From assembly GCF_057098645.1 (NCBI RefSeq), contig NZ_CM169472.1: a stretch of 64,000 nucleotides of DNA; one strand, 5' to 3'. Position 1 is the stretch's first letter, and the number at the start of each line of letters is the position of its first letter. This document shows positions 45,201 through 48,200 of this stretch, piece after piece. A program made the position numbers.

Positions 45201-48200
45201 CGTCAATGCGCATTATCGCCGACATCATCGCCTGGTGTTCCGGCAACATGCCGCGATTTAATACCATCAGTATCAGCGGTTACCACATGGGTGAAGCGGG
45301 TGCCAACTGCGTGCAGCAGGTAGCATTTACGCTCGCTGATGGGATTGAGTACATCAAAGCAGCAATCTCTGCCGGACTGAAAATTGATGACTTCGCTCCT
45401 CGCCTGTCGTTCTTCTTCGGCATCGGCATGGATCTGTTTATGAACGTCGCCATGTTGCGTGCGGCACGTTATTTATGGAGCGAAGCGGTCAGTGGATTTG
45501 GCGCACAGGACCCGAAATCACTGGCGCTGCGTACCCACTGCCAGACCTCAGGCTGGAGCCTGACTGAACAGGATCCGTATAACAACGTTATCCGCACCAC
45601 CATTGAAGCACTGGCTGCGACGCTGGGCGGTACTCAGTCACTGCATACCAACGCCTTTGACGAAGCGCTTGGTTTGCCTACCGATTTCTCAGCACGCATT
45701 GCCCGCAACACCCAGATCATCATCCAGGAAGAATCAGAACTCTGCCGCACCGTCGATCCACTGGCCGGATCCTATTACATTGAGTCGCTGACCGATCAAA
45801 TCGTCAAACAAGCCAGAGCTATTATCCAACAGATCGACGAAGCCGGTGGCATGGCAAAAGCGATCGAAGCAGGTCTGCCAAAACGAATGATCGAAGAGGC
45901 CTCAGCGCGCGAACAGTCGCTTATCGACCAGGGCAAACGTGTCATCGTTGGTGTCAACAAGTACAAACTGGATCACGAAGACGAAACCGATGTACTTGAG
46001 ATCGACAACGTGATGGTGCGTAACGAGCAAATTGCTTCGCTGGAACGCATTCGCGCCACCCGTGATAATGCCGCCGTAACCGCCGCGTTGAACGCCCTGA
46101 CTCACGCCGCACAGCATAACGAAAACCTGCTGGCTGCCGCTGTTAATGCCGCTCGCGTTCGCGCCACCCTGGGTGAAATTTCCGATGCGCTGGAAGCCGC
46201 TTTCGACCGTTATCTGGTGCCAAGCCAGTGTGTTACCGGCGTGATTGCGCAAAGCTATCATCAATCTGAGAAATCGGCCTCCGAGTTCGATGCCATTGTT
46301 GCGCAAACGGAGCAGTTCCTTGCCGACAATGGTCGTCGCCAGCGCCTATTCCGATCTCGGTTTCGACGTAGATTTAAGCCCGATGTTCTCTACACCTGAA
46401 GAGATCGCCCGCCTGGCAGTAGAAAATGACGTTCACGTAGTGGGCGCATCCTCACTGGCTGCCGGTCATAAAACGCTGATCCCGGAACTGGTCGAAGCGC
46501 TGAAAAAATGGGGACGCGAAGATATCTGCGTAGTCGCCGGTGGCGTCATTCCACCGCAGGATTACGCCTTCCTGCAAGAGCGCGGCGTGGCGGCGATTTA
46601 TGGTCCTGGTACACCTATGCTCGACAGTGTGCGCGACGTACTGAATCTGATAAGCCAGCATCATGATTAATGAAGCCACGCTGGCAGAAAGTATTCGCCG
46701 CTTACGTCAGGGTGAGCGTGCCACACTCGCCCAGGCCATGACGCTGGTGGAAAGCCGTCACTCGCGTCATCAGGCGCTAAGTACGCAACTGCTTGATGCC
46801 ATTATGCCGTACTGCGGTAACGCCCTGCGACTGGGCGTTACCGGCACACCCGGCGCGGGGAAAAGTACCTTTCTTGAAGCCTTTGGCATGTTGTTGATTC
46901 GTGATGGATTAAAGGTTGCGGTTATTGCGGTCGATCCCAGCAGTCCGGTCACTGGCGGTAGCATTCTCGGGGATAAAACCCGCATGAATGACCTGGCGCG
47001 TGCCGAGACGGCGTTTATTCGCCCGGTACCATCCTCCGGTCATCTGGGCGGTGCCAGTCAGCGAGCGCGGGAATTAATGCTGTTATGCGAAGCGGCGGGT
47101 TATGACGTAGTGATTGTCGAAACGGTTGGCGTCGGGCAGTCGGAAACGGAAGTCGCCCGCATGGTGGACTGTTTTATCTCGTTGCAAATTGCCGGTGGCG
47201 GCGATGATCTGCAGGGCATTAAAAAAGGGCTGATGGAAGTGGCTGATCTGATCGTTATCAACAAAGACGATGGCGATAACCATACCAATGTCGCCATTGC
47301 CCGGCATATGTACGAGAGTGCCCTGCATATTCTGCGACGTAAATACGACGAATGGCAGCCACGGGTTCTGACTTGTAGCGCACTGGAAAAACGTGGAATC
47401 GATGAGATCTGGCACGCCATCATCGACTTCAAAACCGCGCTAACTGCCAGTGGTCGTTTACAACAAGTGCGGCAACAACAATCGGTGGAATAGCTGCGTA
47501 AGCAGACCGAAGAAGAAGTACTGAATCACCTGTTCGCGAATGAAGATTTCGATCGCTATTACCGCCAGACGCTTTTAGCGGTCAAAAACAATACGCTCTC
47601 ACCGCGCACCGGCCTGCGGCAGCTCAGTGAATTTATCCAGACGCAATATTTTGATTAAAGGAATTTTTATGTCTTATCAGTATGTGAACGTTGCCACTAT
47701 CAACAAAGTGGCGGTCATTGAGTTTAACTATGGCCGAAAACTTAATGCCTTAAGTAAAGTCTTTATTGATGATCTTATGCAGGCGTTAAGCGATCTCAAC
47801 CGGCCGGAAATTCGCTGTATCATTTTGCGCGCGCCGAGTGGATCCAAAGTCTTCTCCGCAGGTCACGATATTCACGAACTGCCGTCTGGCGGTCGCGATC
47901 CGCTCTCCTATGATGATCCGTTGCGTCAAATCACCCGCATGATCCAAAAATTCCCGAAACCGATCATTTCGATGGTGGAAGGTAGTGTTTGGGGTGGCGC
48001 ATTTGAAATGATCATGAGTTCCGATCTGATCATCGCCGCCAGTACCTCAACCTTCTCAATGACGCCTGTAAACCTCGGCGTCCCGTATAACCTGGTCGGC
48101 ATTCACAACCTGACCCGCGACGCGGGCTTCCACATTGTCAAAGAGCTGATTTTTACCGCTTCGCCAATCACCGCCCAGCGCGCGCTGGCTGTCGGCATCC

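Follow-up and report, generated by a model that had tools for sequence, protein, structure and literature searches.

Why does the meaB gene (also called argK or ygfD) of an Escherichia coli strain carry an amber codon inside an otherwise continuous reading frame, and is the gene still what its family assignment would make it? The question is raised by a stretch of 64,000 nucleotides of assembly GCF_057098645.1 (contig NZ_CM169472.1), hereafter called the window, to whose positions all coordinates refer. MeaB is a GTPase chaperone of the G3E family that loads adenosylcobalamin onto methylmalonyl-coenzyme A (CoA) mutase (ScpA, or Sbm) and protects it. We consider it very probable that the stop is a recent loss-of-function nonsense mutation in meaB, and one of the steps by which a dispensable scp operon is decaying piece by piece.

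The ancestral meaB frame occupies 46663-47658 on the plus strand (331 codons plus stop) and is 100% identical to the corresponding locus of E. coli O145 strain RM9872, the window locus as a whole showing the same complete identity to RM9872 and 98.5% identity to K-12-type strains. Read from the ATG at 46663, it consists of 276 sense codons, a TAG at 47491-47493, 54 further sense codons and a TAA at 47656-47658. An earlier reading of this DNA (the sequence-only reading) had placed an amber at codon 277 of 331, with the frame running on to a TAA before the scpB ribosome-binding site, and it was exact in its coordinates, its codon number and the peptide given for the downstream part; the TAA is indeed followed directly by an AAGGA Shine-Dalgarno sequence and by the scpB ATG at 47669. 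At its other end meaB starts before the scpA stop is complete, the two genes sharing 8 nt (46663 versus 46670), which links the gene to that of a B12-dependent acyl-CoA mutase.

The identity of the gene, likewise proposed from the sequence, is secure. The residual open reading frame (ORF) of 276 codons (46663-47490, plus strand) scores 452.8 bits against NF006958, the NCBIfam equivalog model of MeaB (family NF006958 / TIGR00750; model length 333 positions), whose curated cut-off is 329 bits, and the restored sequence of 331 amino acids (aa) scores 494 bits. This ORF comprises the N-terminal extension and a P-loop G-domain of the G3E type, with the motif GxxGxGK[ST] present as GTPGAGKST at residues 61-69, and its G-domain aligns with those of structures 2P67, 2QM7 and 8DPB. 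What it does not contain is the C-terminal arm. The 54 orphaned codons (47494-47655, plus strand), formerly the C-terminal dimerisation helices, encode a peptide that begins LRKQTEEEVLNHLF and is identical to residues 278-331 of K-12 ArgK, so that the description of this part as conserved C-terminal sequence was well founded; they align to positions 282-331 of the 333 in the NF006958 profile. Since no in-frame ATG, GTG or TTG occurs among them, no restart product is expected from this part of the frame. The dimerisation arm, which a functional member of the family encodes in one uninterrupted frame with its G-domain, is here separated from it by the stop. Judged from its coding sequence, the locus is a pseudogene of the MeaB/ArgK family and not a functional member.

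Is the stop derived, or might ArgK simply end at residue 276 in some strains? As outgroups we used HB101, a K-12-type reference, and 88-3493, the closest relative whose operon is intact. Both have TGG where the window has TAG, and within the final 500 nt of meaB nothing but the G-to-A change at 47492 separates the window from either of them, which bears out the single-base change that had been suggested. As is expected of a nonsense pseudogene, intact orthologues lack the internal stop, and an outgroup reveals the sense codon from which it arose. The E. coli ArgK structure 2P67 and the RefSeq MeaB are both 331 aa long with a tryptophan at 277, and MeaB of Methylobacterium extorquens carries the equivalent tryptophan, W279. 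Given the length of 2P67, this equivalent residue and the match of the post-stop codons to the profile up to position 331, a natural end at residue 276 can be ruled out for the family. The change from TGG to TAG (W277*) and its direction are real; the difference from the orthologues is a verified one, and chance is not at issue. On the branch leading from 88-3493, meaB has acquired P34S and W277* only, with zero synonymous changes, which argues that the stop is recent.

The distribution of the allele points to a single lineage. This stretch is carried by 4151 complete E. coli genomes, and in 26 of them a 61-nt probe with the TAG at its centre finds an exact match; the other 4125 differ from the probe and were counted as TGG. 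Where a serotype label is given for the 26 carriers, it is O145, O145:H28 or O145:NM, and their sources include cattle, humans, lettuce, ice-cream, water and veal, from countries including the USA, Belgium and Spain. The exact 276-aa product is encoded on 454 public contigs, among them independent assemblies of read sets, and it has been deposited in GenBank several times (AHG10433.1, AHG16269.1, AHY66592.1, AHY72249.1). W277* is fixed in the O145:H28 lineage of Shiga toxin-producing E. coli and also in the closely related strain UTME-3. The RefSeq annotation of RM9872 already flags meaB ("internal stop"), scpA ("frameshifted") and srsR ("internal stop") as pseudogenes; our literature searches found no published discussion of this meaB pseudogene in O145:H28. 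Given the existing annotation, we regard the pseudogene as an ordinary one. That scpA and srsR are also pseudogenes, that the allele is specific to a lineage and that an annotation exists are points which go beyond the sequence-only reading; the small additions made by the present analysis concern the order in which the steps of the decay occurred and the kind of lesion that scpA suffered.

What the truncation does to the protein can be predicted from work on its relatives. MeaB and its human counterpart MMAA are homodimeric G3E GTPases with a C-terminal extension for dimerisation, whose helices begin in MeaB at about residue 294 (PMC9974510), and the C-terminal arm acts as a hinge, while a crossover of switch III completes the active nucleotide site across the dimer (PMC10356863). 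A stop at codon 277 removes the entire dimerisation arm and about 15 residues ahead of the C-terminal helices. Because the arm is lost and the active GTPase site of the family is built across the dimer, the 276-residue product would probably be unable to function, or unstable. As for the importance of the gene, its deletion (as ygfD) from an engineered operon lowered 1-propanol output to about one third (PMC3850637), a drop in keeping with a protein that assists the pathway without being strictly indispensable.

The neighbouring genes place this lesion in a wider context. Upstream, scpA (sbm, methylmalonyl-CoA mutase; 44588-46670, plus strand) is a pseudogene: 62 bp are missing between 46335 and 46336, and the shifted frame runs into a stop at 46397-46399, at aa 604 of 714. 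The deletion takes out 20 residues, including the DxHxxG cobalamin (B12)-binding motif, and it is flanked by a 5-bp direct repeat, TCGCC, which suggests an origin by slippage or microhomology. Downstream, scpB (ygfG, methylmalonyl-CoA decarboxylase; 47669-48454, plus strand) is intact, its protein being identical to that of 88-3493, and so is scpC (ygfH, propionyl-CoA:succinate CoA transferase; 48478-49956, plus strand), according to the annotation and to the comparison with 88-3493. Next to it, srsR (ygfI, a regulator of the LysR family; 49953-50849, minus strand) is interrupted by Q69* (CAA to TAA) at 50643-50645.

In which order did these lesions arise? The exact srsR Q69* allele and the meaB stop occur in one and the same set of 26 genomes, and the scpA deletion junction in 25 of them. 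The exception is UTME-3, isolated from veal in the USA, which has both W277* and Q69* and yet an annotated scpA of full length. This scpA shares with the window the lineage-specific single-nucleotide variants at 45856, 45922, 45937 and 46067, where both outgroups differ, and it is for this reason the undeleted ancestral haplotype and not a foreign import. Because UTME-3 combines the stop with an undamaged scpA of this haplotype, the meaB stop is older than the scpA deletion. The nonsense mutations of meaB and srsR thus both precede that deletion, in either order. The idea that meaB decayed since its client scpA was already dead is ruled out by the same strain.

The clustering of the lesions deserves a comment. 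In the approximately 64 kb of the RM9872 annotation that match the window, meaB, scpA and srsR are the only genes flagged as pseudogenes, and all three lie in one block of five genes; were three hits to strike at random among about 61 genes, they would all land within five neighbouring genes with a probability of roughly 0.01. It would be tempting to take SrsR for the regulator of the scp operon and the three lesions for hits in one pathway, but this is not supported, as the published targets of SrsR/YgfI omit the scp genes (SrsR paper; YgfI/DhfA preprint). The srsR lesion may be an adjacent hit that is unrelated to the scp pathway.

Taken together, these data lead us to the following scenario. 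Ribosomes would terminate at the amber through release factor 1 (RF1) and release a 276-residue product with the G-domain; the nonsense mutations of meaB and the adjacent srsR came first, and a deletion of the slippage type then destroyed the B12-binding site of scpA, with scpB and scpC still intact. The operon scpA-meaB-scpB-scpC ("sleeping beauty mutase") is reported to be barely expressed (PMC3850637), and no match to meaB was obtained in 1144 of the 5426 complete E. coli genomes, so that weak purifying selection with neutral decay is the simplest explanation; we infer neutral decay to be the cause of the loss of this operon. Several points weigh against this reading and should be acknowledged. 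Since scpB and scpC are intact, the decay of the locus is not uniform. The G-domain left by the truncation might, in principle, be a stable and active protein. Selection for loss, and not neutral drift, could stand behind three lesions in one small locus. Finally, our exclusion of an amber suppressor covers suppressors of the supE type only, in one genome (RM9872).

One alternative takes up the third of these points. According to it, the three independent lesions (meaB W277*, srsR Q69* and then the scpA deletion) would reflect selection, in cattle-associated O145:H28, to shut off the B12-dependent conversion of succinate to propionate; in one version, a truncated and unregulated MeaB would have made the intact mutase harmful and so driven its deletion. 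We regard this scenario as unlikely. A related idea, which we find more doubtful still, is that the 276-residue G-domain protein persists in a stable form with its old role or a new one, such as that of a monomeric, unregulated or dominant-negative chaperone that made the later loss of scpA advantageous. It can appeal to the intact P-loop and switch regions and to the 452.8 bits on the MeaB model, to an ORF that was kept without further damage, and to the fact that the stop predates the deletion. However, the dimerisation arm and the active site formed across the dimer are described as integral to the mechanism of these proteins (PMC9974510, PMC10356863), and the absence of further damage is explained by the recency of the stop.

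It has also to be asked whether a suppressor tRNA or programmed recoding might let ribosomes pass the amber, so that full-length functional MeaB is still made. The 54 undamaged codons downstream would agree with this, but they are equally expected after a recent mutation, given that the whole gene shows two changes on its branch. Programmed recoding sites are conserved as stops; this one is confined to one lineage, the 26 genomes of O145:H28 type, and is thus not conserved in that way. Moreover, the client gene scpA is destroyed in all of these genomes but one, which leaves nothing to chaperone. As to suppression, the supE allele does occur in E. coli: the supE44 tRNA sequence matches 155 complete genomes, mostly recognisable laboratory derivatives of K-12 among the 40 matches listed, and with 40 of the 155 listed this search could not by itself exclude O145. 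We therefore located the metT-glnV tRNA operon of RM9872 through its annotation and read the anticodons of its tRNA-Gln genes there; the four read CUG, CUG, UUG and UUG, with glnV and glnX both CUG, so that no suppressor of the supE type is present in RM9872, and no tRNA gene was found within the window itself. Readthrough is, on these grounds, very improbable. A sequencing or assembly error over a true TGG in an intact gene, for which one could say that errors may well produce a difference of a single base, can safely be dismissed, since the identical allele recurs in 26 complete assemblies from different sources and countries and the exact truncated protein on the 454 contigs, which also settles the concern about error voiced with the sequence-only reading.

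Other features of the window are mentioned here for completeness. The gene uacT (ygfU, urate/proton symporter) contains at 16850-16919 a perfect 35-bp tandem duplication, two copies of GCTGTAACTACACCACCAACCGTTACAACCTCTAT, which frameshifts it into ORFs at 15574-16950 and 16923-17186 (plus strand). The duplication is absent from RM9872, RM12761 and C325, where uacT is intact with 1449 nt, and it appears to be specific to the strain of the window. At about 52921-52925, within an ORF at 52691-53620 (plus strand), RM9872 and RM13514 have some 12.6 kb that are absent from the window, namely a P4-like satellite prophage (primase-helicase, Icd-like, ogr/Delta, Psu, integrase) and an IS3 element, which split a hypothetical gene; the empty site with an intact ORF of 309 codons is found in the window, RM12761, RM13516, C325 and UTME-3. 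The gene for release factor 2, prfB (about 19554-20652, minus strand), has its programmed +1 frameshift, as annotated in RM9872, and this recoding site is unrelated to the meaB amber, which is read by RF1. Between rpiA and argP lies a remnant ORF of 231 nt (43120-43350, minus strand) annotated as "LysR substrate-binding domain-containing protein"; it is present also in the K-12-type HB101, which makes it an old fragment common to many strains. The window further contains the 6S RNA gene ssrS (about 39330-39513, plus strand) and two copies of the type I toxin gene ibsC (about 40237-40296 and 40629-40688, minus strand), located within a repeat of about 300 bp whose copies are about 90% identical.

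What, then, does the locus teach us? We think of it as an ordered example of how the "sleeping beauty mutase" operon is lost step by step in a lineage of food-borne pathogens. Its significance is little, and it has no bearing on recoding, on the genetic code or on open mechanistic questions. W277*, srsR Q69* and the 62-bp scpA deletion could serve as simple markers of the O145:H28 lineage, with UTME-3-like strains as an intermediate stage, and, as far as gene content allows a prediction, O145:H28 would be unable to convert succinyl-CoA to methylmalonyl-CoA by the B12-dependent route.

Several known systems can be set beside the locus. The closest is ArgK/YgfD of E. coli K-12, which is MeaB itself (2P67; WP_000606525.1): the same gene, in the same position between scpA and scpB and with the same P-loop. 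The two are identical at 326 of 331 positions, the window having W277*, P34S, T54A, E81D and A116T, and the product predicted from it lacks residues 277-331. MeaB of M. extorquens and human MMAA (2QM7, 8DPB, 2WWW, 8GJU) share the N-terminal extension, the G-domain and the C-terminal dimerisation arm, and the tryptophan equivalent to W277 is conserved in M. extorquens MeaB (PMC9974510; PMC10356863); these proteins are intact and functional, whereas in the window the arm is cut off and, in most strains of the lineage, the client mutase is broken. A further parallel is offered by the lineage-specific pseudogenes of cryptic or dispensable operons in pathogenic E. coli and Shigella; here, too, two nonsense point mutations and a small slippage deletion lie together in one dispensable locus and are fixed in one clone. 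Set against such reductive decay in general, there is nothing unusual about this locus; its decay is partial, with scpB and scpC intact.
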